A stretch of 14,599 nt of DNA from an uncultured Thermoplasmata archaeon (GCA_964399335.1 CAYNQI010000026.1:1-14599); one strand, 5' to 3'; counted from the first letter of the stretch, positions 941-14,456 are shown. Notes: generated by a model from the sequence alone, not told the origin. Program-made: numbers and translations.

Positions 941-3900
941 ATGGTTGATATATTAGATATTGATGGATATACTTTCGATAAGGAAGTTTTACGACTGGCT
1001 GTTGAAGAATATGTAAAATTTAGAGGTACTGACGAACATACTGAAGATTACAAGTGGGAAATTTTTAAAGATTTAAACAAATGGTTAGATGAAAACGAAT
1101 TAAATGAGGAAAACATTCTTGATTTTGTTAACTTCCTTAAAGAAAAAAATCCTAATACAGGTTCATTTACACATTGGAGCGATCTTGATGATATAGCTAA
1201 ATTTACAGAAGAGAATATTGAAAAAACACTAGATTTATTCAAGGAGTTATATTATGGTAAAGATGATCTTGAAGATAGAATTTCAAAGTTCAGAGATGAA
1301 ATAAAAATAGGTACACCTGCCTTTGGTTATTTGCTAGCTGCCTTTAATTATGAAAAATATGCACCTATAAAAGTTGGTCTTTTTAAGAAGTTTATGGATC
1401 ATTTTGTAGACATGACTCCTAAAAATATAGGTTCGTTTTCTATTGATAAAAAGTATTCGTTCTATGTTCTATTTTGTGAGAAAATAGGTGAATTCTTAGA
1501 GGAAGAAGGGGTGATCGAAAAGGCAACAGCTTTAGCTGCACAAGATTTTTATTATACTATTGAAGCCTATGAAGATATTAAATTAGAATCCATATTTTTG
1601 AAATATATCTGGAATTTTGACCAAAAATTCAGTGAGTTTAAGAAAGATTCAGAGTTATTGATCCGTGAGATAGCTACATTGCCTACAGATTTTCTTCAAG
1701 AAAAGAGAGATTTTTGTGCGAATGATGAAAAGATAAACAAAATAAGATATATTACATTAGATAAGTTGATAAAAGAAGAAGATGTAGATATAGAAAAGAT
1801 AGCCACCGATGTAAATAGTGATTACGAAAAGAATATTTTGCAAAATTGGACGAATTTTACCATTCATTCTCAGATTTATTACGACTTTTTTAAGTATAGA
1901 TTGTCTAGATACTTTGAATCAATCAGTGAATTTCTCACTAGCAACATTGATATTGAAAGTTTAGACTCCAATATCGTGACATTCCAAGGTTCACGGAATA
2001 GGCCAACAGTTGAACCTTATATACTTATTTATCCTGAGGAAAAGGGTAGTCATAGAGATAGTTATCAATTCTTTTTCAGGGTCTTACCCAAAAAAATAGA
2101 ATATGGTTTGAGTCATGGTGAGAATATTGATGATAGTGAGTTTAAGGAGAAATATGTTGGTGAGATTAACGAGGTTGATGAAAATAGTTTAAAACGGATT
2201 GTTGAAAGATATAATCAGATAATAGATGAATTCAAAGAATTGAATCAACTAGATCTAGAAGTGGATGATGATATAAGATGGTATATCGACAAATATAAAG
2301 AACTTCACGATTGGAAAAGCGATTTAGAGAAAAGAAAGAAATTCCAAGATAAATATAGAAAGATATTTGATCCTGATAATATTGATGAACTCGATAAAGA
2401 AGATGTTTTCTCTTTTTTAAAGGAATCATTTTGGCCTGGTCTTGAAAGGAGTAAAAATAAAATCACAGAAGACATGGAAAAATTACGAAAATCAATTGAG
2501 TACCTTCTTGATGATAACGAAGACTTAATAGAAAGATTGAACAACATTGTCGACAATTCAAAAAGTGAATACTGGATAAGAGGGATGGGTAGGAATCTAT
2601 CTACCGGAATCATTAAACTAATGGATGAATCCGATGAATATGGAGTCTTCAATGAAAGAGCAACTACAGCTATGAAGAAACTTGGTATATATCCTGATGA
2701 TATAACTTCTTCGATGAGTACTGGTGAAAAATACGTCAAAATTAATGAGGTCTTGAAAAAACTGAATAATATGGGTTTAGAAGGTATGTGGGATGTTGAT
2801 TATTTTGTCTATTGGTTGGATGAAAACTATGAAAAACTAGCAAAAAAGAAACAAAAACATAAAGAAATTGATATCCCAGCAGAAATTGAAGAAATTTTTA
2901 ATGAAGTATTCAAAGACAAAAGGCTAATTGTGCCTGCTTTTAATCATTTCAAGTTGGTTTTTAATGAGATCAAAGGTAAAAAGGATATCGGGGATAAAGT
3001 AGCAACTACGTGGAGAAAAAGTGATGATATGATATCAATCAACATAGGGAATTGGAAGATATTTAGTATCGCCAGAGATCAGGATCAATATCAATGTGCT
3101 ATAGCAGCTGATTTAGACGTGTTATATGAGGAATATGATAGTTGGCCCGAATTCATTGAAGAATATCGTGAATTTAAAGTGGGTAAGAATCATAAGTTGA
3201 TCAAATTTGAATGGCATCCAGATATATTTGAGAAACATTCTAGTTTGAAAGAAGCAATGAAAAATTCAACCAATTATGCTTTTGACTATTTCAATAGTAG
3301 TGCATATACAAACCATCAACATGAAGGTCTTTTTGAATTCTTCACTGATAAAGATTATGAACAACCTATTCCAGAAGATATACACGCTGTAGAAGAGGAA
3401 ACCAATTACTTCTGGGTTACTGCAAATCCGAGCATATGGAGAGTTTCTAAAATTGAAGATGGGAAAAGTGTATTCTATAATGCATATAATAGAAAAGGTA
3501 ACAAAAAAAGGATCTTCGAGTCATTTGAAAAGGCAAAAGCAGGGGACAAAGTATTGTTTTATGAATCTACACCTGTTAAGAAAATTGTCGCCGAAGGTGA
3601 GATTGAAAAAGGTATGCACTATAAAAAACAAGAGGGGTTTGATGAAGCAACAAAAGGTATTTCCATAAAATATTGTGAACCTATAAATGATATATCTTGG
3701 AAAGAGATTACTGATGTTTCAAAACTTGAAGACTCCGCTCCAGTGAAGAATAGCGCTAGAGGTAGTATATTTGAAATTTCCAAAGATGAATATGATGCTA
3801 TTTTGTCTTTAGAAGAAAATATACAAGAAATTGAAAGAACTAAGGAAGAGATCTTGCTCGAAAAGAATAATGCGGAACTAGAGTTCGAAGATATCGATTT

Positions 3901-4882
3901 CACTGAAGGATTACATTTCCCTAAAAAGACTAGAAGAGATATAATCCAATCTGTTAAAGCCGCTCTAAAATCTGGAAAAAATATCATATTAACGGGACCT
4001 CCTGGAACAGGGAAAACGAAGATAGCTAGAAACATCGCTAAATTGATGGAGGATAATTGTGAATGTGTGGATGGATTCACATTCACGACTGCAACAGCTG
4101 ACTGGACCACCTTTGATACTATGGGTGGTTATCATCCTCACAAAGAAGATGGTTCTCTGTGTTTCAAACCTGGTCTGTTCTTAAAATGCTTCAAGGAAGA
4201 TTTCAAACCTGTAAATAAATGGCTGATAATCGATGAGATAAACAGGGCTGATATCGACAAAGCATTTGGACAATTATTTAGTGTATTATCAAAGGACGAT
4301 GTGGAATTACCATTTACTGATGAAAGTGAAAGATCTATTTCAGTTGTATCGATAAACGAAAAAAACGATGAGATCGAATATAAAGACAACAACTACTACG
4401 TAACACGCAATTGGAGGCTACTTGCTACCATGAACACCTACGATAAAGCTTCGCTTTATGAGATGAGCTACGCATTCATGAGACGGTTCGCTTTCATCGA
4501 TGTAGGTGTTCCTATGGAACAGATCAGTGATGATTTGATTATAGAATATATCAAAAAATGGGATGATCTTGAAGTTGATGAGGTTGAAAATTATCTTGAT
4601 AATCTAAGCCGTGTTTGGAAAGTTTTGAATGATGGTAAAAGGTCCATCGGCCCAGCTATCATAAAGGATATGTTACTATTCTTAAAAGAATCAGGTGATG
4701 GAGAAGGTCTAGTGAACGCATTGAAACTATATGTTTTACCTCAGATGGAGGGTATGATAAAAAGTGACCAGGAAAAGATATTCCAAGATTTGATACAAGA
4801 GATTGGTCATCAAGATGAAATAAAGAAAGTAGCTAAGGAGAGATTTGAACTTATATTGAAAGAAAAGAAAGAAGGCGAATAA
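941..4882 (+). CDS. mcrB: McrB-family AAA+ GTPase (type IV, modification-dependent restriction) with a long multidomain N-terminus including an EVE domain
   Basis: Walker A GPPGTGKT (nt 3995-4018), Walker B LIIDEINRA (about 4223-4249), McrB signature MNTYD (NxxD, 4433-4444) and AFMRRF arginine finger. The EVE-like segment NYFWVTANPSIW...AKAGDKVLFYESTPVKKIVAEGEI...RGSIFEISKDEYDAIL (about 3403-3810) lies directly before the GTPase. The gene is followed after 2 nt by a McrC-like gene. Confidence 0.92.
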   Translation: MVDILDIDGYTFDKEVLRLAVEEYVKFRGTDEHTEDYKWEIFKDLNKWLDENELNEENILDFVNFLKEKNPNTGSFTHWSDLDDIAKFTEENIEKTLDLFKELYYGKDDLEDRISKFRDEIKIGTPAFGYLLAAFNYEKYAPIKVGLFKKFMDHFVDMTPKNIGSFSIDKKYSFYVLFCEKIGEFLEEEGVIEKATALAAQDFYYTIEAYEDIKLESIFLKYIWNFDQKFSEFKKDSELLIREIATLPTDFLQEKRDFCANDEKINKIRYITLDKLIKEEDVDIEKIATDVNSDYEKNILQNWTNFTIHSQIYYDFFKYRLSRYFESISEFLTSNIDIESLDSNIVTFQGSRNRPTVEPYILIYPEEKGSHRDSYQFFFRVLPKKIEYGLSHGENIDDSEFKEKYVGEINEVDENSLKRIVERYNQIIDEFKELNQLDLEVDDDIRWYIDKYKELHDWKSDLEKRKKFQDKYRKIFDPDNIDELDKEDVFSFLKESFWPGLERSKNKITEDMEKLRKSIEYLLDDNEDLIERLNNIVDNSKSEYWIRGMGRNLSTGIIKLMDESDEYGVFNERATTAMKKLGIYPDDITSSMSTGEKYVKINEVLKKLNNMGLEGMWDVDYFVYWLDENYEKLAKKKQKHKEIDIPAEIEEIFNEVFKDKRLIVPAFNHFKLVFNEIKGKKDIGDKVATTWRKSDDMISINIGNWKIFSIARDQDQYQCAIAADLDVLYEEYDSWPEFIEEYREFKVGKNHKLIKFEWHPDIFEKHSSLKEAMKNSTNYAFDYFNSSAYTNHQHEGLFEFFTDKDYEQPIPEDIHAVEEETNYFWVTANPSIWRVSKIEDGKSVFYNAYNRKGNKKRIFESFEKAKAGDKVLFYESTPVKKIVAEGEIEKGMHYKKQEGFDEATKGISIKYCEPINDISWKEITDVSKLEDSAPVKNSARGSIFEISKDEYDAILSLEENIQEIERTKEEILLEKNNAELEFEDIDFTEGLHFPKKTRRDIIQSVKAALKSGKNIILTGPPGTGKTKIARNIAKLMEDNCECVDGFTFTTATADWTTFDTMGGYHPHKEDGSLCFKPGLFLKCFKEDFKPVNKWLIIDEINRADIDKAFGQLFSVLSKDDVELPFTDESERSISVVSINEKNDEIEYKDNNYYVTRNWRLLATMNTYDKASLYEMSYAFMRRFAFIDVGVPMEQISDDLIIEYIKKWDDLEVDEVENYLDNLSRVWKVLNDGKRSIGPAIIKDMLLFLKESGDGEGLVNALKLYVLPQMEGMIKSDQEKIFQDLIQEIGHQDEIKKVAKERFELILKEKKEGE

Positions 4883-4884
4883 AG

Positions 4885-6207
4885 ATGAGCAAAACTCCTC
4901 AAGACGAACTACTAGAACCTGTTGCATCAGAGATGGTGAGTTTTCTAAGAAATGGACTAATTAACCCAGAATTTATTGAAAATAATCTAGAGTTTAAAGG
5001 TATCGATAGGATACAGGATCTAAAATCTATCTTGAGGATACATTTCGTATTATCTGAACCTGTAGTCAACTTTTTGAAAGAGTTACCTAGAAGGATTAGA
5101 AGGATCAAAACAGAATCAAAGAAAAACGTTATCAGGAGGAGAGGTGAAATAAGAGGACGGATAAACTGGAGCAGAACGGTCATCGACCAAAGATCTCAGA
5201 ACGACCGTTCAATATTCATATGTCAGAACCCTTCTAAGAATTACAACGTATCTGAAAACTTAGTTTTGAAAAAATTGTTATCGATCATCTATGTGGTGTT
5301 GGATAGTGATCTAGAAACACCGCTTGAGAAGAATTACACTTGGTTGAAAGGGTTAAAGGATGAAGAAGATCTGGTAACCTTTCTAAAAAACATATATCGT
5401 AGAAATGTACACGTGAACAGGATAAAAGATCCGGAAGAATACCAAGTTTCTGAAAGGGATACATCTATTGCAGAAAATTCTAGAAAAGAACTTTACAAAG
5501 AGGCAGCTTATCTGTTTATAAAATACAAGAAACTGATGGGTGGTGAATATGAGAAAAAAGAGTTGGAAGAACTGTTGAATGAAACATTGATCATCCCAGG
5601 AGATGCACCAACATTGTTTGAATTGTATGCAGTGTTCAAACTCCTCCGTAAAATCGGAGAGGACTTCGAAATTAAAAAATATGTAGAAGGGAGTTCAGAG
5701 ATCGCTCTATTTGAAAAAGATGAAACTAAGGTTCTAGTTTATCACGACTCGACTGGTGGTATGAATTTCTATGAGAGTATATTGAAATTAAGACAAAAGA
5801 AATCAGATATCAAATACCTTGAGAGATTTAGGAAAGCTACGTTGGAGTATGCTGATCTAGTAAAGAAGCTGTTAGATGAAGAAAAATCTTCTATCTATGG
5901 AGGTCGACCTGATCTTTTGATAGAGCATTATGAAAGTGGTGAATTGAAGAAACTCGTTATCGGTGAGGTCAAATATTCGGACCAAAAGTCAAAATTCAAG
6001 GAAGGTTTAAAAGAGTTGATAGATTACCTCTATTTTGCAAGGGAAGGAGACGATTATGTACTGGATAACCTAGAAATCGAAGGTATTTTGGTCGTTGACA
6101 AGAAGGGATATTTGGGAAGTAGTAAGTTAGAAGAAAATAAAGTTATAGGAGACTTACCATTCAAATTGGAAATATATGATACTGAGGAACTGAAAGGGAT
6201 AGGATGA
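4885..6207 (+). CDS. mcrC: McrC-like PD-(D/E)XK endonuclease subunit
   Basis: Translationally coupled to mcrB (TAA-AG-ATG). Contains the McrC-type GEIRGRINWSRT and NYNVSENLVLK motifs and the C-terminal catalytic pattern RPDLLI...VIGEVKYS...EGLKELIDYL. Confidence 0.85.
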   Translation: MSKTPQDELLEPVASEMVSFLRNGLINPEFIENNLEFKGIDRIQDLKSILRIHFVLSEPVVNFLKELPRRIRRIKTESKKNVIRRRGEIRGRINWSRTVIDQRSQNDRSIFICQNPSKNYNVSENLVLKKLLSIIYVVLDSDLETPLEKNYTWLKGLKDEEDLVTFLKNIYRRNVHVNRIKDPEEYQVSERDTSIAENSRKELYKEAAYLFIKYKKLMGGEYEKKELEELLNETLIIPGDAPTLFELYAVFKLLRKIGEDFEIKKYVEGSSEIALFEKDETKVLVYHDSTGGMNFYESILKLRQKKSDIKYLERFRKATLEYADLVKKLLDEEKSSIYGGRPDLLIEHYESGELKKLVIGEVKYSDQKSKFKEGLKELIDYLYFAREGDDYVLDNLEIEGILVVDKKGYLGSSKLEENKVIGDLPFKLEIYDTEELKGIG

Positions 6208-6234: not shown

Positions 6235-7029
6235 ATGGTCAAAACAACATCTAATCAGTTTAGAGAATTGAAAAGAAAATTAGCTAATGGGAAAGTCAGA
6301 GAGAACGAAAAGTTATGGAATTTTTTGATCGCTTCAATCCTAGATAAAAAAAACAATAAATCAAGATATATCAGAAAATTCACAGATGATTTAGTTACTG
6401 AAGATGGATTCGATATCTGGTTCGAGTCTCAGCCATTACCACCTCGTGAGGATGAGGGTAACACAGCTTTAGACTTCTCTTTTGGAGACATTAAAAGAAG
6501 AGGTGATACTAAATCAGGTATCGAATACGATCCTGTTGAAGACTCATTCGTGTGTTTTGTAGAAGGAAAATTGTTCTCTGACTGCAGTACTAGAGTACGT
6601 AAAGATCCCTTGAGGAACCAGCTCATCAGAATCATAGAGAATTTACTATGTTTTCAAAGTAAAGGTAAATTCCCAGATAAACTGTATTTTACTCTACTTA
6701 CACCTAAAATATTCAAAGAAAACAAAAGATCGAAGTTGTATTCTTATAAAATGCAGGAATATTGGGATGAAGAAAGTGATACTATACGGAAAGACAATAT
6801 CTTAAGAGATATCGATTCCTGTAGGAACGAAAGAAGGAATCAAACAGATTGGAGATATCCTGATATCGAGGGGAGGCTGGATAGGCTGAATATAAGTTGG
6901 GTGACCTATGAAGAGATACTAGCGGAAGAATTTGATATGGATGGGTTAGATTTGACTGATCTAGAAGAGAGGGAGTTAGAGGGATTTAAAGGTGAAATGG
7001 AGAGAAAGATAAAGGAGATAAGAAGTTAA
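6235..7029 (+). CDS. Hypothetical protein, probable PD-(D/E)XK nuclease fold
   Basis: 264-aa ORF 27 nt after mcrC. The pattern EGNTALDFSFG...FVCFVEGKLFSD...RNQLIRIIE gives D, ExK and a downstream Q-containing helix typical of the superfamily. Confidence 0.6.
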   Translation: MVKTTSNQFRELKRKLANGKVRENEKLWNFLIASILDKKNNKSRYIRKFTDDLVTEDGFDIWFESQPLPPREDEGNTALDFSFGDIKRRGDTKSGIEYDPVEDSFVCFVEGKLFSDCSTRVRKDPLRNQLIRIIENLLCFQSKGKFPDKLYFTLLTPKIFKENKRSKLYSYKMQEYWDEESDTIRKDNILRDIDSCRNERRNQTDWRYPDIEGRLDRLNISWVTYEEILAEEFDMDGLDLTDLEERELEGFKGEMERKIKEIRS

Positions 7030-7188: not shown

Positions 7189-7953
7189 ATGAAGAAGAAC
7201 ACCATGTTGACGTTGGAAAAGAACGTAATAGAGACCGCTAAAGCATTGGGGATCAATCTTAGCCAGGTTGCTGGTGAAGCGTTAAAAAAGAGACTTGAAG
7301 AAAGGTTACGTCCTAGAGGACAAGGTATCGTACAGATCCCAAAGACAGAAAAAGTGATATTGAAAAATATAGGTCCTTTTCAAGGCGAAAAAGAGTTCGA
7401 GTTTTCAGATGGTATGAACGTGATAGTAGGAGCTAACGGTTCCGGAAAAACAACTATCATCGAATCTATCAGAGCAGTTTATGGTGATCAAAGACCCCCT
7501 ACCAAGAACGAGTTTGTAGAAGATGATGAGGATGCTTGGATCAAAGTGGTTCCCATGGACGGAGAGATCAAAAGAGACATCTCAGAGGTGGGTCATAGGT
7601 TAACCGAAGGTGACTTTACTCATAGGATCGATTTTGAGAGGTTTGATAGCTTGACTGAGGTGATCAAAGAGAGGATGAGTCACAATGCAGGTATGGATTT
7701 TAGGGGGCTTTCTGAAGGTGATAGAGTGTTCAGAGAGATAGTGTTCCAGTCCATGGCCACTAGACCTAACGAATGTTATGTGAATGATGGGGCTCTAGCA
7801 AGGTTGGATGTCAAAATCAAGGAAATAGTCTTGGACATGTTACGTCAACAGGACATCCAAGTGATACTCACTTTCCCTTCTATAGACAGGGAGGATGAAA
7901 GGATATACTCAGAGGATCACAACATGGTTGAGATTGGAGAGAGGAGGTCGTGA
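7189..7953 (+). CDS. Fusion of a CcdA-like RHH domain and a short Rad50/SMC-type ABC ATPase with degenerate Walker B and H-loop
   Basis: Residues 1-40 MKKNTMLTLEKNVIETAKALGINLSQVAGEALKKRL are RHH antitoxin-like. They are followed by VILKNIGPF, Walker A GANGSGKTT (7429-7455), signature LSEGD (7708-7722), Walker B-like CYVNDG, D-loop LARLD and QVILTFP. Confidence 0.75.
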   Translation: MKKNTMLTLEKNVIETAKALGINLSQVAGEALKKRLEERLRPRGQGIVQIPKTEKVILKNIGPFQGEKEFEFSDGMNVIVGANGSGKTTIIESIRAVYGDQRPPTKNEFVEDDEDAWIKVVPMDGEIKRDISEVGHRLTEGDFTHRIDFERFDSLTEVIKERMSHNAGMDFRGLSEGDRVFREIVFQSMATRPNECYVNDGALARLDVKIKEIVLDMLRQQDIQVILTFPSIDREDERIYSEDHNMVEIGERRS

Positions 7954-8070
7954 AACATTTCCATTTTCACCGACCCCTTGATTAAATTTATAAGTAGAGT
8001 GAAAGAAGTGATATATTTCCCGGAAGCGGGAGAAAAATATGGAGTTTGAAAAGTAGGAGAGGTAGATAAG

Positions 8071-9576
8071 ATGAGTAGAAGTCCAGAAAAAGAAGCGAGG
8101 AGAGAAGAGTTCGATAGAAAGAAGTTGAAGCAGTTGGGTATGGATAAGGATTTTGACGAGGTCGAGATATTCGAGAACAATTACGAGTATCTTAGGGCAA
8201 TGACCATGCTTGGAAGAAGTATGATTTTAGAGGCTCGATATATGACCAGATATCCATCTAGAGATAGATTCGAAGAGAAGTGTGAAGAATATAGTAAGAT
8301 CTACAAGGGTCTTGAGGAGAAGCGTGAAGAGTCGGAAGAAGAAAGAGGTGAGAAATTCAAAGCTACGAAATTCCTTGAAGGAGAGGGTTTTGACGAGATC
8401 GAAAAGGGAGCTATCAAACTAGCTTATGCCAAGAAAGGTGTCGGTATCAAAGCTTCTAATCCAACGGTAAGAGGGGATGTGCTGATCCATGCACTCAAGA
8501 TGATATCTGATCTTGAGGTTGAAGAGATAAGATCCTATCTTACGATCGGTTCTAAGTTGATGAATGAAGGTTATTTAAGATCCCACCGTAGAGGTAGTCT
8601 TAGAAATCATGAGGGGCTGGAGATGAGGAGTTTCATCATAACTAACTCAACGGTGAATTCGATACTTGAAAACGAGAGCATCGATGTTGAAGAAAGGGAT
8701 ATCACAGGTTTAAGTAGAAAAAGGCATGAAAGAGATAGAGGTGAGAATATCTTGGAGCCGGTTGAAACCGATATCACACTTTCTGATGTGGTACTTCCAG
8801 AAGAAATAAAAGAATCCGTTGGAGCTATAATGACGGAGAAAAAGTACGAAGAAAAGTTCTACGATGAATGGGATATGCAGAGTGTCGTAGGTAATAGAAG
8901 AGGGTTGAACGTGCTCTTTTCCGGACCACCTGGAACCGGCAAAACGATGACTGCCAAGGCCCTCAGCAACCATCTAAACCAGGAACTATACATCATCAGG
9001 TTCGAGGAGTTGGTGAATGTCTGGTACGGTCAGACTGAAAAGAACGTGAAAAAGTTGTTCGAAAAACTCGATGAAAACGGAGGTATCATACTTTTAGACG
9101 AAGCTGATGCGATACTGAAAAAGAGGAGTTCTAACAGAGGGGGAACTAGTGCCACTGAGAACCGGATCGTCAATATATTTCTACAGGGGATGGAGGAACA
9201 CTCTGGTGTAGTCGTGATGACTACGAATCTAGCAGTCAACATGGACAGCGCTTTGAACCGAAGGATCGATCTAAAAGTAGAATTTCCTGTACCGGATGCT
9301 GAAGCAAGAGAAAGTATCTGGATGTACCATCTACCAGATAAACTGCCTTTAGGAGATGATGTCGATCTTAAGGAGCTTGCTGAGAGGTATGAATTCACTG
9401 GTGGAAGTATCAGGAACGCAGCTTTCAATGCAGCAAGGAACGCTCTGCATGCAGAGAGAGATGTTGTAACTAAAGAAGACTTCAATGCCGCTATCAAGAA
9501 AGAGAAGGAAGGAGAGAAAGCAATGAAGTACTCCCTACAGGACGAAGGCGGGGAGATGTTGAAGGGCTACAAGTAG
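8071..9576 (+). CDS. Classical-clade AAA+ ATPase (single AAA module, helical/winged-helix-like N-terminus; Afp15/Pvc15-like architecture)
   Basis: Walker A GPPGTGKT (8923-8946), pore loop VWYGQTEKN, Walker B ILLDEAD, sensor-1 MTTN, second region of homology MDSALNRR, and lid FTGGSIRNAAFNAA. SD-like GGAGAGGT lies upstream. Confidence 0.88.
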   Translation: MSRSPEKEARREEFDRKKLKQLGMDKDFDEVEIFENNYEYLRAMTMLGRSMILEARYMTRYPSRDRFEEKCEEYSKIYKGLEEKREESEEERGEKFKATKFLEGEGFDEIEKGAIKLAYAKKGVGIKASNPTVRGDVLIHALKMISDLEVEEIRSYLTIGSKLMNEGYLRSHRRGSLRNHEGLEMRSFIITNSTVNSILENESIDVEERDITGLSRKRHERDRGENILEPVETDITLSDVVLPEEIKESVGAIMTEKKYEEKFYDEWDMQSVVGNRRGLNVLFSGPPGTGKTMTAKALSNHLNQELYIIRFEELVNVWYGQTEKNVKKLFEKLDENGGIILLDEADAILKKRSSNRGGTSATENRIVNIFLQGMEEHSGVVVMTTNLAVNMDSALNRRIDLKVEFPVPDAEARESIWMYHLPDKLPLGDDVDLKELAERYEFTGGSIRNAAFNAARNALHAERDVVTKEDFNAAIKKEKEGEKAMKYSLQDEGGEMLKGYK

Positions 9577-9630
9577 ATGATTAAGAATAGTTAGTAGGGC
9601 ATAAATGTATGCATAATATGACATGTAATA

Positions 9631-9644
9631 GAAAAACATAAATA
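9631..9644 (+). promoter_or_regulatory. Putative BRE/TATA (GAAAAA-CATAAATA) upstream of the 9677 gene cluster
   Basis: A purine run followed by an AT-rich octamer sits about 33 nt before ATG 9677 in the 100-nt intergenic gap. The downstream genes are spaced only 7-12 nt apart. Confidence 0.35.
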
Positions 9645-9676
9645 GCACATACCGACATAACTCTATTTGTGGTATT

Positions 9677-10732
9677 ATGGCAAGAACGACTGTTCGGGTT
9701 CCGGATGAATTAAAAAGGGAGATGGATAAGATGAATGAAATAAATTGGTCTGAATTTGTTAGAGAAAAGATTAAAGAAAGAATATATCTAACAAAACCGA
9801 CTGAGAGAAAAATAGAGAGATTCATAAAGAGATATGGAAATGATTTAAAAAAATTATGGATACTCCATATATTATCTGAAGGGATCCCTAAAAAGGATGC
9901 ATATAACATAGCTGAACTCATCTTTGGTGAAGAAGTTGATGAAACTGTCGATAATTTAGAAAAGGAAATGGAAGAATTAAATATTAGACAAATCCATAAA
10001 AGATTAAATGAAGGTTCTTTAGTTAGGGATGCCCTACAAAGAGAAATAAATCTAATGGGCATCGAAAATATAAAAAGAAAGGTGAAAAACGATATTAAAA
10101 ACTCATCTAATGAAGTAAAAAACGGGATAATTTTACTTTGCTCATATGTTGAAGATAATTTTGATAGAGACCGATGCACCATAAATTTAGATGGATTTGA
10201 ACGTACTTGGAAAATATATGTTGGACAAAATGTTGATATGAATGATTTGTTATCTACGGGTATAGTTTACAAGTATTTTTATTCATCAAACGCTTATGGA
10301 TATTGGACACTAAGAGTTCCTAGATATGGATTAGATATTTTAGAAGAAATATACCATGGAAACGGTATAAAAGAAGTAAGTTACAATAAACCTAGTTATT
10401 CAACGGTTAAAAATTTGTTAAATAACGATGATAATAGAGAGTTTATTAAGTGGATGGAAGGTTCTAGGAAGTACGTTAAAGAGTATGAGGAGGAAAAAGA
10501 GTTGAAAAGAGAATTTGATGAGACAAATATAGATATCTCTATTGAGGATTTTAAGAAGATTCGAGAAGACTTAATAAAAAAAGATGTTTTGGTAATAAAT
10601 TATAATCCTCATCGAAGTAATACTGGGAGAAGAAATAGTAAGCCTGCAAAGTGGCGTTATGAATTTACAAATTCAGCTTTAACTCATATTGCAGATATCC
10701 TCATGGAAAAATTTAGTGAAATGGAGTTTTAG
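9677..10732 (+). CDS. Hypothetical protein: N-terminal archaeal antitoxin-like RHH domain fused to about 310 aa of unknown, possibly winged-helix, domains
   Basis: Residues 1-36 MARTTVRVPDELKREMDKMNEINWSEFVREKIKERI follow the archaeal RHH pattern (beta strand, PxELKxxM, INWSE). 351-aa open frame. Confidence 0.7.
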   Translation: MARTTVRVPDELKREMDKMNEINWSEFVREKIKERIYLTKPTERKIERFIKRYGNDLKKLWILHILSEGIPKKDAYNIAELIFGEEVDETVDNLEKEMEELNIRQIHKRLNEGSLVRDALQREINLMGIENIKRKVKNDIKNSSNEVKNGIILLCSYVEDNFDRDRCTINLDGFERTWKIYVGQNVDMNDLLSTGIVYKYFYSSNAYGYWTLRVPRYGLDILEEIYHGNGIKEVSYNKPSYSTVKNLLNNDDNREFIKWMEGSRKYVKEYEEEKELKREFDETNIDISIEDFKKIREDLIKKDVLVINYNPHRSNTGRRNSKPAKWRYEFTNSALTHIADILMEKFSEMEF

Positions 10733-10744
10733 GCTGGGATACAC

Positions 10745-11590
10745 ATGGCTTGGTTATTGGATATATATGAAAGTGGTAAACTGATTCTAACACCAGATAT
10801 GATCTGCCCAAATTGTGATACCTTGATTGCATGTAAGAAACACAAATGGGCTTACGATAATTGGTTCATATGGTGGTATAAAAAAAAATTCGGTGAGGTT
10901 CCTGAAATTAATGATTATAAAAAGAGGAATAAAAAAACTAAAAACGAAGAAGTCGGTTATATAGATTTAAAACAAAATACTTTGAATCAATTTGATAAGG
11001 GTAAAAAAATAAAGCTAATGTTCGTTTTAGAAAGTCCAAATGGAAAAACAAGCTATTTTTATAACTTGGATGGAGATCAAACTGGAGTGACTGGTAGATT
11101 AATTTCACCTTTAGAATATAATATTCCTAGCTATCCTTCTAATATTAGTGATAAAAAAGAGCGGATACGTCATTTCATAGAGTATGGATACCTACTCACA
11201 GACTTATTTCACACCCCTCTCAACAATGTAGATAATGTCATGGAACATATTGACCGATTAAAAGATGAAATTGAAGAGATAAATCCGGATAAAATAGTGA
11301 TCATGTTACCAAAAAAGACATTCGATAAAAAAAATATGGAACTTTATATTGAATTGATAAACAAAAATCTAGGCGGAAAACCAATAGACAATAATGATGA
11401 TTTCATAGATAAAGAAATAAACATAATCCAAAAGCTGATTAGTTGTATAAAAGATGAAATTGAAATTAAAGCTGCTCCTTTCCCTGCTACTCAAGGTAGC
11501 CTACCTGATGAATGGAAAAAAAGAGATACCTATAGTTTTTCTGACTGGGTTAAAGAAAACAAAGATTGGTTAGAAATCGAGGAGGAATAG
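10745..11590 (+). CDS. UDG-superfamily-like protein (paralog 1) with an N-terminal Cys/His segment
   Basis: Motif-A-like LMFVLESPN..SYFY (Glu at nt 11030), then F..xGYLLTDLF..P, NPDKIVIMLPKK and a motif-B-like APFP. CPNC...C..H occupies aa 21-33. Clearly homologous to 13710..14456. Confidence 0.65.
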   Translation: MAWLLDIYESGKLILTPDMICPNCDTLIACKKHKWAYDNWFIWWYKKKFGEVPEINDYKKRNKKTKNEEVGYIDLKQNTLNQFDKGKKIKLMFVLESPNGKTSYFYNLDGDQTGVTGRLISPLEYNIPSYPSNISDKKERIRHFIEYGYLLTDLFHTPLNNVDNVMEHIDRLKDEIEEINPDKIVIMLPKKTFDKKNMELYIELINKNLGGKPIDNNDDFIDKEINIIQKLISCIKDEIEIKAAPFPATQGSLPDEWKKRDTYSFSDWVKENKDWLEIEEE

Positions 11591-11597
11591 TGATATT

Positions 11598-12388
11598 ATG
11601 AAATTCGTGCAAGAAAAAGAAAATATGAAAATAGCTAGAAGTTCCTTTAAAGATATCGAAAAGGCAAAGGTGAAAGTAGATTTGACTGACATCGGATTAT
11701 CTTCGATTGATGAAATGAAAGAGTTGAAGGGATCATCAGCTAGGAGAACTGGAGATCGGACCTGTTCGCTTTGTTCTGGAGAAAAGTTGTTAGAAATGTG
11801 TTGGAGGACTTGAAGGAGGCCATTGATATGGGGACTACTACAGCGATAATACATATCGGTAGGGAACATCAATTCCATTCAGGTATCAGAACGGATCTTA
11901 TGGTATTGTTGAGTGAAAACGATGCGCCTTACTTATCTCCTTTCAAACCAAAATATCAAGAAGATTCCATGTGTTACAAATTGTGCGAAAGTCCTAAAGG
12001 TGGTTTTATCCCGGACCTTAAAGATTGGTTTGGAAGTGACCCGATGTTTTCTCATCCGATAACCGATATGCTGTTGACTTTCCAATGGGAACGATCTGAA
12101 GCATCGGGTGAGATCGAAAAGATAATTGAGAACGTAGACTGCGACTGGAAAGATTATGTATGGTGTGAAGGAAGGACAGACCCGAAGAAGGAAAAAGATA
12201 CTAGGGAACGGACTCAGTTGGATAAAGCCAGGGATCTTATGAGAGAAAACAAGTTCGACGGGAAGATAGTCATAACTATACTGAATGGGATCTCTTTAGA
12301 GGCTACCAAAGGCATCAAAAGAGATGCTAACAGATTAAAAACAGATGTAGTGATCTTGGATGAAAACGAGATCGGAGAAGTGTATTAG
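11598..12388 (+). pseudogene. Probable single gene of about 263 aa split by a -1 frameshift near 11735-11770; possible PD-(D/E)XK-like nuclease
   Basis: ORF 11598..11813 has a good start (7 nt after the previous stop) but ends in an atypical tail. ORF 11771..12388 starts at a TTG with no SD. The second frame is open from 11744 (ENWRSDLFALFWRKVV...), and adding one G at GCT AGG/GAG AAC TGG joins the two. The C-terminal part shows ITDMLLTF...VWCEGRT...QLDKA. Confidence 0.5.
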
Positions 12389-12398
12389 GTGATAAAAG

Positions 12399-13544
12399 AT
12401 GACAGATAATGGGCATAGTGATGAAGAAGAGCGCGGGATGATATTATCCCGCTTCAGCAGTGATGTTGTTCAGCAGGCTATAGATGCAGGGATATTGGAT
12501 GAGGATTTACTAGATGTTGAGGACCCAGATGAACGTGGTGATAGATATATCAAGGCATACAGGGAGATACCTCGGATCTTGGACGATCGAGAGAAGATAG
12601 AGGAATTCATAAATCGAGAAAAGGGATACGTACCCTCATTTCCCTGGTTCTGGGGCGAGTACTATCATGTAAGTATGAAGGGGGATAAAAAAATCGTCAA
12701 AGAGAGAAAGGCATCCCAGGAGAGAGAGAGATTCAAAGAACGGATCGGATCACTCATCGATACAGAGGGAGATTACATTAGTCTACTCAATAGTATTCTG
12801 GAAACCGGTGTCGAAGTAAGAGACTTATTCGAAGTTAGTTTTCCCCTACGCGATGGAAAACTGGTTTATGCTTCTACCGGAACAAGGTATATTTTTGAGA
12901 CCGGTGAGGATGAGTGGTCTCGCTCCCTGAAAGTTTCGTCGATATTTGAGCACAAAACGGATCGATACGAACGTTTGTTTGAAATAGAAGGCTTTGTAGC
13001 ATTCGAGGATTATTATGTTGGTACTCCCCTCGAGATGGGTTATAAGGTGTTCATCGCCAGGGAACTCCTGCCACTGATTTACGAGGTTTTGGATGGGACA
13101 GAAGAGATGAAGATCCATGAAGAAAGGTTCGTGGTGAGTGAGGAAGAGATGGAAAAAATACCCAACGTATTATCAGATACTTTAAATAACCATCCTCAGA
13201 CTAATAAAATGAACCTAAAGATACCTCAAGATCCAATAAATGTTGATATAGGTTGGTTTGAAAAATATATAGGACCATTCACCGATGGAAATGTATCCCT
13301 AAACGGTGATGAAATCTCTCGAAAAACAAAGAAGATGATCCTGAAACAAGGAACAGCCATTGCAAGTTATCTATGGAAAAGAAATGATTGGAAAGAAGAA
13401 CTAAAGCAAACTATTGAATGGCCTCAATTCCTGAAATTTTGTAGTAAAAATTATATGATCTTTCTTAAATGGTGGGAAGGGGAACAGGATTGGGATGATA
13501 GTATTCAAGAGTTCATCGATAAATTAGAACAACACTACTATTAG
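12399..13544 (+). CDS. Hypothetical protein, probably a two-part chimera
   Basis: 381-aa ORF with SD AGGTGAT. No recognisable catalytic motif. There is an internal in-frame SD+ATG at 13138-13151 and a GC drop at the same point. Confidence 0.75.
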   Translation: MTDNGHSDEEERGMILSRFSSDVVQQAIDAGILDEDLLDVEDPDERGDRYIKAYREIPRILDDREKIEEFINREKGYVPSFPWFWGEYYHVSMKGDKKIVKERKASQERERFKERIGSLIDTEGDYISLLNSILETGVEVRDLFEVSFPLRDGKLVYASTGTRYIFETGEDEWSRSLKVSSIFEHKTDRYERLFEIEGFVAFEDYYVGTPLEMGYKVFIARELLPLIYEVLDGTEEMKIHEERFVVSEEEMEKIPNVLSDTLNNHPQTNKMNLKIPQDPINVDIGWFEKYIGPFTDGNVSLNGDEISRKTKKMILKQGTAIASYLWKRNDWKEELKQTIEWPQFLKFCSKNYMIFLKWWEGEQDWDDSIQEFIDKLEQHYY

Positions 13545-13709
13545 ACAAACGACTTTGATAATTGTAGATGGCTGTGAGGCTTTTAAAAGTCATCATGTAC
13601 TCGAACTGGTTCTTATTGAGTGTAGAGTAGATGGAAAAAGGAAGAGAAAAATGTTCCGAAAGGATGATATTTAAAGAGATGTTAAAGATAGTGAAAGAGG
13701 ATAGATAAC

Positions 13710-14456
13710 ATGAATAGATATAGAGAAATGAAAATAAAGACAATAGCTGATGCGTATGATATTAGATATGATGAAGAAGACGATATTGAAGAATTGGAAA
13801 AAAAAGTTTATGAAAAAGGGAGAGAAAAAGTAGATCTTATCTTTATTGCTGAAAGTCCTCCTGAATATTCTAAGATCGAGAATTATTTTTATTATGTAGA
13901 AGATGGTGCTTCGGTTAATGGTATAACATCTAATCTTATAAAACGATTAGAAGAGAATGTATATAAAAACGGGAAAAACGATGATGGAAATGAAGACAAA
14001 ATATATAGAATCAAAAAATTTCTTAATAAAGGTTACTGGCTCGAGGATATATTTCCCAAACCCATGGATTGTATAAAAGAGAAAGAAGCGAAGAATAGGG
14101 TCGGCGAGTTAAAACATTTGATCGAAAAGTTAGATCCTGATAAAATCGTTATGTTTTTACCTAAAAAAATATTCAAACATAAATCTATGGAAATATTTTG
14201 TAATGAAATCGGTATCGAGTATCAATATGATAATGATGAATTCAACCTGATCAAAATGCAGGAAAAATTATTGTCAAAACTTTTAGACGATACTATAGCT
14301 TCAAAATTGGCACCGTTTCCAGGGCAAGGTGTACCCAAAGTTTGGAAAGAAAAAGGATATGTTTCATTTAAAAGATGGGTCGAAGACGACGAGACTAAAG
14401 AGAATGTAAAATTTTTAACGATTACTGAAGAAGATCTAAAGACGATGAAAGGATAG
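13710..14456 (+). CDS. UDG-superfamily-like protein (paralog 2)
   Basis: LIFIAESPP...NYFY (Glu at nt 13851), FLNKGYWLEDIFPKP, LDPDKIVMFLPKK and LAPFPGQG occur in the same order as in 10745..11590. SD-like GAGGA lies upstream. Confidence 0.7.
   Translation: MNRYREMKIKTIADAYDIRYDEEDDIEELEKKVYEKGREKVDLIFIAESPPEYSKIENYFYYVEDGASVNGITSNLIKRLEENVYKNGKNDDGNEDKIYRIKKFLNKGYWLEDIFPKPMDCIKEKEAKNRVGELKHLIEKLDPDKIVMFLPKKIFKHKSMEIFCNEIGIEYQYDNDEFNLIKMQEKLLSKLLDDTIASKLAPFPGQGVPKVWKEKGYVSFKRWVEDDETKENVKFLTITEEDLKTMKG

Follow-up and report, generated by a model that had tools for sequence, protein, structure and literature searches.

Two UDG-like genes at one archaeal locus

The DNA analyzed here (the window) is the entire 14.6-kb contig C26 (CAYNQI010000026.1, 14,599 nucleotides [nt]) of an archaeal metagenome-assembled genome (MAG) that is 80% complete. 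All its long open reading frames (ORFs) lie on the plus strand. We studied two genes of its second half whose products resemble proteins belonging to the uracil-DNA glycosylase (UDG) superfamily, the second of which ends 143 nt before the end of the contig:

10745 to 11590, plus strand: UDG-like paralog A (P0001, 281 amino acids), with a UDG-like core carrying the motifs ESP, YFY, D.F..P, LPKK, and APFP
13710 to 14456, plus strand: UDG-like paralog B (P0002, 248 amino acids), the copy used for the structure model

P0001 and P0002 share 37% identity and 54% positives over 216 amino acids (BLASTP, E 1e-26). An earlier reading of this DNA, made from the sequence alone, had proposed that the two ORFs align motif for motif, and indeed, every motif pair that it listed was recovered in the BLASTP alignment. 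It had also reported a similarity still visible in the DNA, which we located at positions 11275 to 11345 and 14127 to 14197, about 73% identical (52 of 71 columns). Since this stretch encodes PDKIV..LPKK.F, the most conserved peptide of the paralogs, the resemblance at the DNA level stems from constraint on the protein and not from recent copying.

P0001 has an N-terminal extension (residues 1 to about 60) with a zinc-knuckle-like CxxC...CxxH pattern, of which P0026 and P0027 are free-standing homologs. The C-terminal part of P0020, a family member found in the database search, matches AIM24 (E 1.6e-20); this chimera is probably a frameshifted or misassembled gene call rather than a true fusion.

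Predicted fold of the UDG-like proteins

We modeled P0002 with AlphaFold2 from an alignment of 18 sequences (A1). The model (pLDDT 85.3, pTM 0.87) contains four strands (residues 43 to 47, 109 to 113, 145 to 148, and 197 to 200) that alternate with helices. When it was compared with the PDB by Foldseek, the leading matches were TDG, MUG, family 4 UDG, SMUG1, UNG, and UdgX, with probabilities of 0.99 to 1.0, E values of 4e-3 or weaker, and TM scores of 0.4 to 0.5. VIA-align, which is independent of Foldseek, filled its first 16 rows with UDG-fold chains, among them 2l3f (Z 8.1, root mean square deviation of 3.4 Å over 142 residues), MUG (Z 7.7), vaccinia D4 (Z 7.7), SMUG1 (Z 7.2), and TDG (Z 7.2), while GTPases, Ago-MID, and generic Rossmann-like folds came after the UDGs at a Z of about 5. 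UDGs were also returned first from a viral structure library, and the ESM Atlas clusters nearest to the model were either named UDG or carried PF03167. The UDG-superfamily-like fold that had been proposed from the sequence was thus recovered in the predicted structure, which shows the three-layer alpha/beta/alpha architecture with a four-stranded parallel sheet, at moderate scores (Z 8.1 to 5.8).

Sequence profiles gave a fainter signal. P0001, P0002, and the partner protein described below had no significant match in Pfam, NCBIfam, PADLOC, or PHROGs, and neither paralog matched PF03167 at an E value of ≤1. Six of the 18 members did match PF03167 in the correct region, all below its gathering threshold of 24.3 bits (best score 17.2 bits, E 0.0057), and no other Pfam family was matched by more than two of them. 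Searches of PDB sequences, with single sequences and with the A1 profile, returned nothing significant. Aligned by hhalign with the family 4 UDGs of related genomes, A1 scored a probability of 51% (E 1.5e-4), with FIAESPP placed on LIGE[AG]PG and P118 on the CRPP loop. Because the probability dropped to 0.5% with a broader alignment (A5), in which motif A and the stacking Phe (F60 on the Phe of PFVG) were still aligned, the sequence-profile support for a link to UDGs is fragile. Overall, we conclude with fair confidence that the fold of the paralogs belongs to the UDG superfamily; as judged by sequence, they lie outside PF03167 as curated.

Conserved residues and the predicted pocket

Residues are numbered according to P0002. 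Across A1, E48, P50, Y59, and P118 are invariant, and S49, F60, Y61, D113, F115, L150, P151, and G207 are nearly so. A profile-seeded search added about 40 unannotated proteins of about 170 to 220 amino acids (the wider clade, typically about 175 amino acids). In an alignment of 17 diverse sequences, comprising 12 of these new proteins together with P0028 and others, the E-S-P motif (E48, S49, and P50), Y.Y, G108, and P-F-P were invariant, and D113 and P118 were nearly invariant. The conserved residues fall at the four sites of a UDG pocket, namely, E-S-P after β1, Y-F-Y about 12 residues further on, D113 (followed by F..P) at the end of β2, and A-P-F-P..G after β4. Their conservation across the wider clade favors a functional pocket over a decayed fold.

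The motif assignments of the sequence-only reading agree with this arrangement. The proposed motif A, AESPP, directly follows β1 and was aligned with GE[AG]PG of family 4 UDGs in three hhalign runs. The proposed motif B is indeed PFP and not HPS: APFP(G/N/A)(Q/T)(G/Q) follows β4, with no His at the canonical place, while the wider clade has PFPSHG there, with a His three residues later. The absence of an Fe-S cysteine set was evident as well, the family alignment having no conserved Cys column. D113 is the last residue of β2, which by topology is the site of the Asn in UDGs (β2 itself was not aligned by hhalign owing to an insertion), and the position of F60 on the stacking Phe of family 4 comes from the low-probability A5 alignment. 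By comparison with Brig1 (see below), D113 would point to a substrate that carries an exocyclic amino group.

Compared with family 4 UDGs and UdgX, the window family has the same order of strands and helices, a motif A Glu two residues before a Pro and right after β1 (AESPP versus GEAPG; GE[AQ]PG in UDG/UdgX), an aromatic residue about 12 residues later (YFY versus PFVG), and a Pro-rich loop after β2. It differs in that it lacks the Fe-S cysteines and the motif B His (APFP versus HPA/HPS), would have Asp in place of Asn at the end of β2, carries helical insertions before β2 (about 25 residues) and between β3 and β4, and ends in a conserved C-terminal tail, SF.DWV..N..WLEI, that is specific to it. 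The best Foldseek matches, in turn, belong to family 2 (MUG/TDG), which resembles the window family in having a Pro-x-Pro-type loop and no catalytic His in motif B. Family 2 enzymes are active without this residue, and the motif B His is therefore not defining for the whole superfamily; they also act on substrates other than uracil (5fC, 5caC, and T in the case of TDG). However, motif A of family 2 is GINPG with a catalytic Asn, whereas the window family has Ser at that place and its conserved acid one position earlier. The top VIA-align match, 2l3f, is a small archaeal UDG-like protein (a putative UDG of Methanosarcina acetivorans from structural genomics), but it is only 14% identical and, having no assigned function, adds nothing on mechanism.

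These data bear on whether the proteins are enzymes at all. They could instead be noncatalytic UDG-fold modules that bind or sense DNA or a flipped (modified) base and signal to the AAA+ ATPase, the ABC-type ATPase, and the partner described below, in a manner comparable to the UDG-like domains on viral PolA enzymes. The missing motif B His, Pfam scores below threshold, the presence of PolA UDG-like domains and vaccinia D4 among the structural matches, and the recurrence of ATPases in the cassette would fit such a role. We nevertheless consider it rather unlikely, as the acidic and aromatic residues at precisely the pocket positions do not vary throughout a wide clade, MUG/TDG-type enzymes are established to work without the His, and several loci keep the UDG-like gene and its partner without any ATPase.

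A partner gene accompanies the UDG-like genes

The gene upstream of paralog B encodes a protein whose homologs directly follow the UDG-like gene elsewhere, and a second, decayed copy of it follows paralog A:

12399 to 13544, plus strand: partner protein (381 amino acids, FPWFWG.YY.V motif), with homologs directly following the UDG-like gene in 8 of 10 loci
11589 to 11779, plus strand: decayed second partner remnant (profile search E 1.4e-5; tblastn 47% identity, E 2e-9; matched at 11589 to 11729 in the genome search)
11828 to 12388, plus strand: accessory gene without profile matches, for which ATG 11828 is the likely true start (TTG 11771 had been listed)

Eight of the 10 loci with a visible downstream gene (the window, G007, G019, L015, L017, L035, L036, and L037) have a partner homolog, 33 to 37% identical, right after the UDG-like gene; the two loci without one harbor the most divergent UDG-like members. 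In G019 and G007, the two genes overlap by 8 to 11 nt. Within the host family, the partner is present in every genome with an intact UDG-like gene, and elsewhere only a weak partial match was found, in G013. The remnant after paralog A is frameshifted and truncated, with codons 2 to about 48 in one frame and codons 75 to 95 (approximately) in another frame with an in-frame stop. As TTG 11771 lies inside this remnant, it is a spurious start for the accessory gene at 11828 to 12388, which has a homolog in L017 located after the partner gene (33% identity over 204 amino acids, E 1.5e-17).

The AlphaFold2 model of the partner (pLDDT 69) is good for residues 1 to 250. Residues 105 to 237, approximately, are winged-helix-like, the VIA-align matches being the CodY C-terminal domain (Z 8.5) and the Cdc6/Orc1 winged helix (Z 7.5), and the C-terminal 120 or so amino acids are specific to the window copy. 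Foldseek gave no credible match for this model, the Atlas gave nothing above chance, and no enzyme fold was detected in these comparisons.

Recurrent accessory genes

Upstream of paralog A, the window encodes two ATPases and a third protein with an antitoxin-type N terminus:

7189 to 7953, plus strand: ribbon-helix-helix (RHH; CcdA-like) domain with a small SMC/Rad50-type ABC ATPase head, a recurrent accessory (Pfam AAA_23 6e-16, SMC_N 3e-11, CcdA 4.5e-7)
8071 to 9576, plus strand: classical-clade AAA+ ATPase with an N-terminal region of about 270 amino acids, a recurrent accessory (Pfam AAA 2e-28)
9677 to 10732, plus strand: RHH/VapB-like N terminus followed by a body of about 310 amino acids (NCBIfam VapB-type RHH 5.5e-8; GC content 29.9%)

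In both L015 (36% identity) and L035 (45% identity, E 4e-67), the gene directly upstream of the UDG-like one encodes a homolog of the RHH-ABC ATPase, and the AAA+ ATPase is 41% identical over its full length to a neighbor of the UDG-like gene in G007 (E 4e-114). This AAA+ ATPase matches IetA in PADLOC (2e-38); in NCBIfam, it scores 118.9 bits for IteA against a cutoff of 510, with similar scores for CDC48 and PAN. An IetAS defense system was rejected, as the score is far below the cutoff and the window has no gene for a subtilase-like protease. ORF 9677-10732 ends 12 nt before paralog A and has a similarly low GC content; it was not found in the other cassette loci. Neither it nor ORF 11771-12388 resembles the ORFs at the same positions in G007, where a 235-amino-acid ORF takes the place of ORF 9677-10732. 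A small AbrB/MazE-like protein (assigned at E 0.005) also recurs, as a separate gene in L017, L036, and L037 and fused to the UDG-like protein in P0012 and P0017, as do proteins of 165, 135, and 99 amino acids near the cassette, the first of which is fused to the partner in L036.

Further genes were observed around the cassettes of other loci. A regulator with an HFX_2341-like N-terminal domain and a winged helix lies within 2 to 3 kb of the UDG-like gene in unrelated loci (L012 5533-6327 in G007 and L038 2972-3688) and may be a further, loosely linked component. Upstream of tandem UDG-like genes in G019:C73, ORF L013 1-408 contains PD...E.E.K (QPDILVEKEEGTVSVIEIEKEAK), a pattern characteristic of restriction-endonuclease-like nucleases, with no profile match. 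A scan for bacterial promoters and terminators, which is ill suited to archaea, remained at chance level.

An organization of this kind recalls toxin-antitoxin or abortive-infection addiction modules. Under such a scheme, the UDG-like protein would damage the cell's own unmodified DNA, the downstream partner would neutralize it, and the RHH and AbrB domains would autoregulate the module, so that protection would come from cell suicide and not from recognition of modified DNA. The UDG-like and partner genes lie strictly side by side, often with an overlap, DNA-binding domains of the antitoxin kind occur in fusions or nearby (AbrB/MazE-like in P0012 and P0017, RHH on ORFs 7189-7953 and 9677-10732), a structural neighbor cluster in the Atlas contains RHH_1/UPF0175 fusions, the remnant in G023 (see below) adjoins an MNT-type nucleotidyltransferase, and the distribution is patchy, with decaying copies. 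Yet the ORF of paralog A is intact although its own partner has decayed, which would be unexpected unless the single intact partner covers both. Moreover, at 276 to 469 amino acids, the partner exceeds the typical size of an antitoxin and is not itself fused to RHH or AbrB, and we know of no toxin with a UDG fold. We therefore regard an addiction module as unlikely.

Distribution and turnover of the cassette

An exhaustive HMMER search of 1.84 billion cluster representatives returned 18 proteins at an E value of ≤0.001, two of which match only the zinc knuckle of P0001, leaving about 15 representatives of the UDG-like family. A word-index homolog search retrieved only P0002 itself with P0002 and one extra protein with the partner. 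Of 42 other host-family genomes, 3 have the UDG-like family, one of these as a broken remnant, and 400 genomes sampled across the phylum have none. This remnant (G023:C38; L014, about 9125 to 9340) has FIGLQP as motif A and an in-frame TGA, and it lies directly after a gene for a minimal (MNT-type) nucleotidyltransferase, with an archaeal ATPase_2/DUF234 gene following it, in surroundings made up of housekeeping genes.

The sequence-only reading had described the two genes as duplicated and diverged within a locus for modification-dependent restriction. They are indeed accessory genes beside a putative type IV restriction system, but they were not duplicated within the locus: the tree joins P0002 to copies from other metagenomes (support 87/92) and places P0001 elsewhere. 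A tandem duplication of recent date was rejected because this tree, the mosaic GC content, and the remnant of a decayed partner after copy A all speak against it. In this mosaic, the UDG-like genes and ORF 9677-10732 have a GC content of about 30%, the other cassette genes 40 to 43%, and the genome 38.7%. Sharp GC switches flank the UDG-like genes at 9550 to 9650, 11600 to 11700, and 13550 to 13700. In all five loci examined (the window, L012, L013, L015, and L017), the UDG-like gene is 5 to 15 GC points lower than its partner, and its GC content at third codon positions is low too. This could have come about by repeated replacement of the gene from donors of low GC content or by selection that keeps the expression of a toxic gene low.

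Taken together, the best-supported reading is that positions 7189 to 14456 of the window are a lineage-restricted, horizontally moving multigene cassette, with a divergent UDG-like protein and an obligate winged-helix-like partner as its core.

This pattern of occurrence argues against an ordinary DNA repair glycosylase that removes some damaged base and has no role in conflict. Such a role would suit P0039, a protein of the wider clade that has the same motifs and an unremarkable neighborhood, and the most divergent member, which lies beside split uvrC genes. For the cassette proteins, we find it most improbable: the family is present in only a few of the related genomes, G007 already has a canonical UDG, there are two copies per locus amid pseudogenization and a GC mosaic, and the coupling is to an obligate nonrepair partner and regulator domains.

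Mobility could also reflect a viral origin, with a function of archaeal tailed viruses or their proviruses (for superinfection exclusion, to attack the DNA of the host or of rivals, or to deal with their own modified bases) and chromosomal copies as proviral leftovers. The low, mosaic GC content, the decay of copies, and a portal gene directly upstream of the L036 cassette would be in line with this, and because of that portal gene, some cassette copies are virus borne. On the other hand, scans of IMG/VR with three queries (P0024, P0002, and the partner alignment), which were pattern based and of low sensitivity, found no relatives, and tblastn of P0002 and the L036 portal fragment against GenBank phage records found no copies. 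PHROGs gave no match for the cassette proteins either, and no virion or integrase genes were found in the contexts of the window, G007, G019, and L017. A viral function is thus, in our view, very unlikely as the general explanation.

Neighboring EVE-McrB and putative McrC genes

The EVE and McrB-type neighbor named in the sequence-only reading is present at the other end of the window: ORF 941-4882 contains an EVE domain (E 5e-10) and an AAA_5 domain (E 4e-15). It encodes a very long McrB-like protein of 1,313 amino acids, about 820 of which precede the EVE domain and the AAA_5 GTPase. ORF 4885-6207 (440 amino acids) starts 3 nt after it and has a C-terminal PD..E.K motif, with no match to a McrC profile; its position and this motif make it a putative McrC. 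The neighborhood survey supported a defense context only in part, as the cassette adjoins EVE-McrB in the window while no other locus showed a direct defense context. The idea that the UDG-like proteins cooperate with McrBC or nuclease-like neighbors found no support in synteny, because none of the other loci has those genes.

Further downstream, ORF 6235-7029 (264 amino acids) contains ALDFSF...FVEGK, a D...E.K pattern suggestive of a PD-(D/E)xK nuclease, with no profile match; it is 100% identical in L030 (PWHJ01000098.1). This 3.3-kb contig is 99 to 100% identical to the window from about 6.2 to 9.6 kb and belongs to a MAG labeled Bacteroidetes bacterium T1Sed10_131. The window genome, unlike that label, is archaeal (L24e is present), and the match probably means that a contig was wrongly binned in one of these MAGs. 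L030 also hints at soda-lake-type sediments as the environment from which the window comes.

A candidate archaeal conflict cassette

We tentatively favor the view that the cassette of the window is mobile and serves in conflict, with a divergent DNA glycosylase of the UDG fold as an effector that acts on a base other than uracil and is controlled by its obligate partner, a reading to which we give slightly less than even odds. Beyond the fold and the synteny, we infer all of it, the glycosylase activity and the defense role included. Several observations weigh against it. The structural scores are middling, a Z of 8 being what a model that lacks a clear match typically reaches at best and the Foldseek E values exceeding 1e-3, and the hhalign probability collapses with the broader alignment. 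The equivalence of D113 with the Asn of UDGs is by topology only, and counting back from P118 gives a one-residue offset. The partner has no recognizable catalytic or inhibitor fold, and PADLOC has no model that matches it or the UDG-like proteins. A direct defense context is found in a single locus, the window, where the pair at 941 to 6207 adjoins the cassette. The genes for the AbrB, UDG-like, and partner proteins of L036 have a portal gene (PF06381, 1.2e-7; phrog_146, 1.8e-12) directly upstream. Finally, P0028, which diverges most from the other members, has split uvrC genes next to it and P0039 sits among ordinary genes, so the wider clade may include repair enzymes.

We likewise infer every step of the following scheme, and each is given as the most likely mechanism. 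The UDG-like protein would flip a DNA base into its pocket, where the Glu of AESPP after β1 would occupy the water-activating position of family 4 UDGs and UdgX, the YFY aromatics would stack on the base, and the near-invariant Asp at the end of β2 would read its Watson-Crick face, while the PFP loop after β4 would act as a wedge. Cleavage of the glycosidic bond would leave abasic sites, by which foreign DNA would be blocked or destroyed. Uracil is probably not the substrate, because an acid would take the place of the Asn at the reader position and the motif B His is absent; the substrate is probably a base with an exocyclic amino group, for example, cytosine or adenine (in modified form or not), as in Brig1. 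Restraint, targeting, or autoregulation of the enzyme would probably fall to the partner and to the RHH, AbrB, and Zn-knuckle domains that occur in fusions or nearby, and the two ATPases would be accessory. The two paralogs, which come from different branches of the family, may differ in specificity.

Antiviral DNA glycosylases (Brig1 to Brig3 and Dag1/2) have, to our knowledge, been recognized only recently, and all characterized examples are bacterial. Brig2 and Brig3 are defense enzymes of the UDG superfamily; Brig1 and Brig2 function as single genes, and Brig3 is assisted by BapA, a helper enzyme from its operon. In Brig1, E147 replaces the usual Asn (N82 in S. tokodaii UDG), and Y121 stacks on the base (PMC11078745). 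As far as published descriptions, and not sequences, can be compared, the window family resembles Brig1 to Brig3 in that sequence searches pick up its UDG-like fold only with difficulty and in being encoded by accessory, AT-rich genes near other defense genes. Like Brig1, it would combine an acid at the reader position (D113, placed by topology, versus E147) with a stacking aromatic residue, and its partner recalls the operon helper of Brig3. It differs in being archaeal and in its coupling to an unrelated winged-helix-like partner, often together with ATPases and RHH or AbrB domains, whereas Brig1 works alone.

A more far-reaching version is conceivable, although we think it doubtful. The cassette would then be a hitherto undescribed archaeal immune system in which exchangeable UDG-fold glycosylases serve as specificity modules for different modified viral bases, restrained or guided by the winged-helix partner and the ATPases, and in which low-GC UDG-like genes are swapped by recombination into a higher-GC chassis, like the specificity subunits of restriction systems.

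As UDG-fold defense glycosylases are already known (Brig1 to Brig3), the cassette is not a new category; its novelty is that it is archaeal, multigene, and invisible to current profiles. The family is also an example of how a confident fold prediction can assign an orphan with about 15 known representatives to a mechanistic class that sequence profiles had missed. If the favored reading is true, it would extend the idea of antiviral glycosylases to archaea and to a layout of several components, in which an obligate partner, two types of ATPase, and regulators resembling antitoxins accompany the glycosylase, and which prompts one to ask how cells keep a potentially genotoxic enzyme under control. 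For the mapping of DNA modifications, enzymes that remove particular modified bases are useful reagents.

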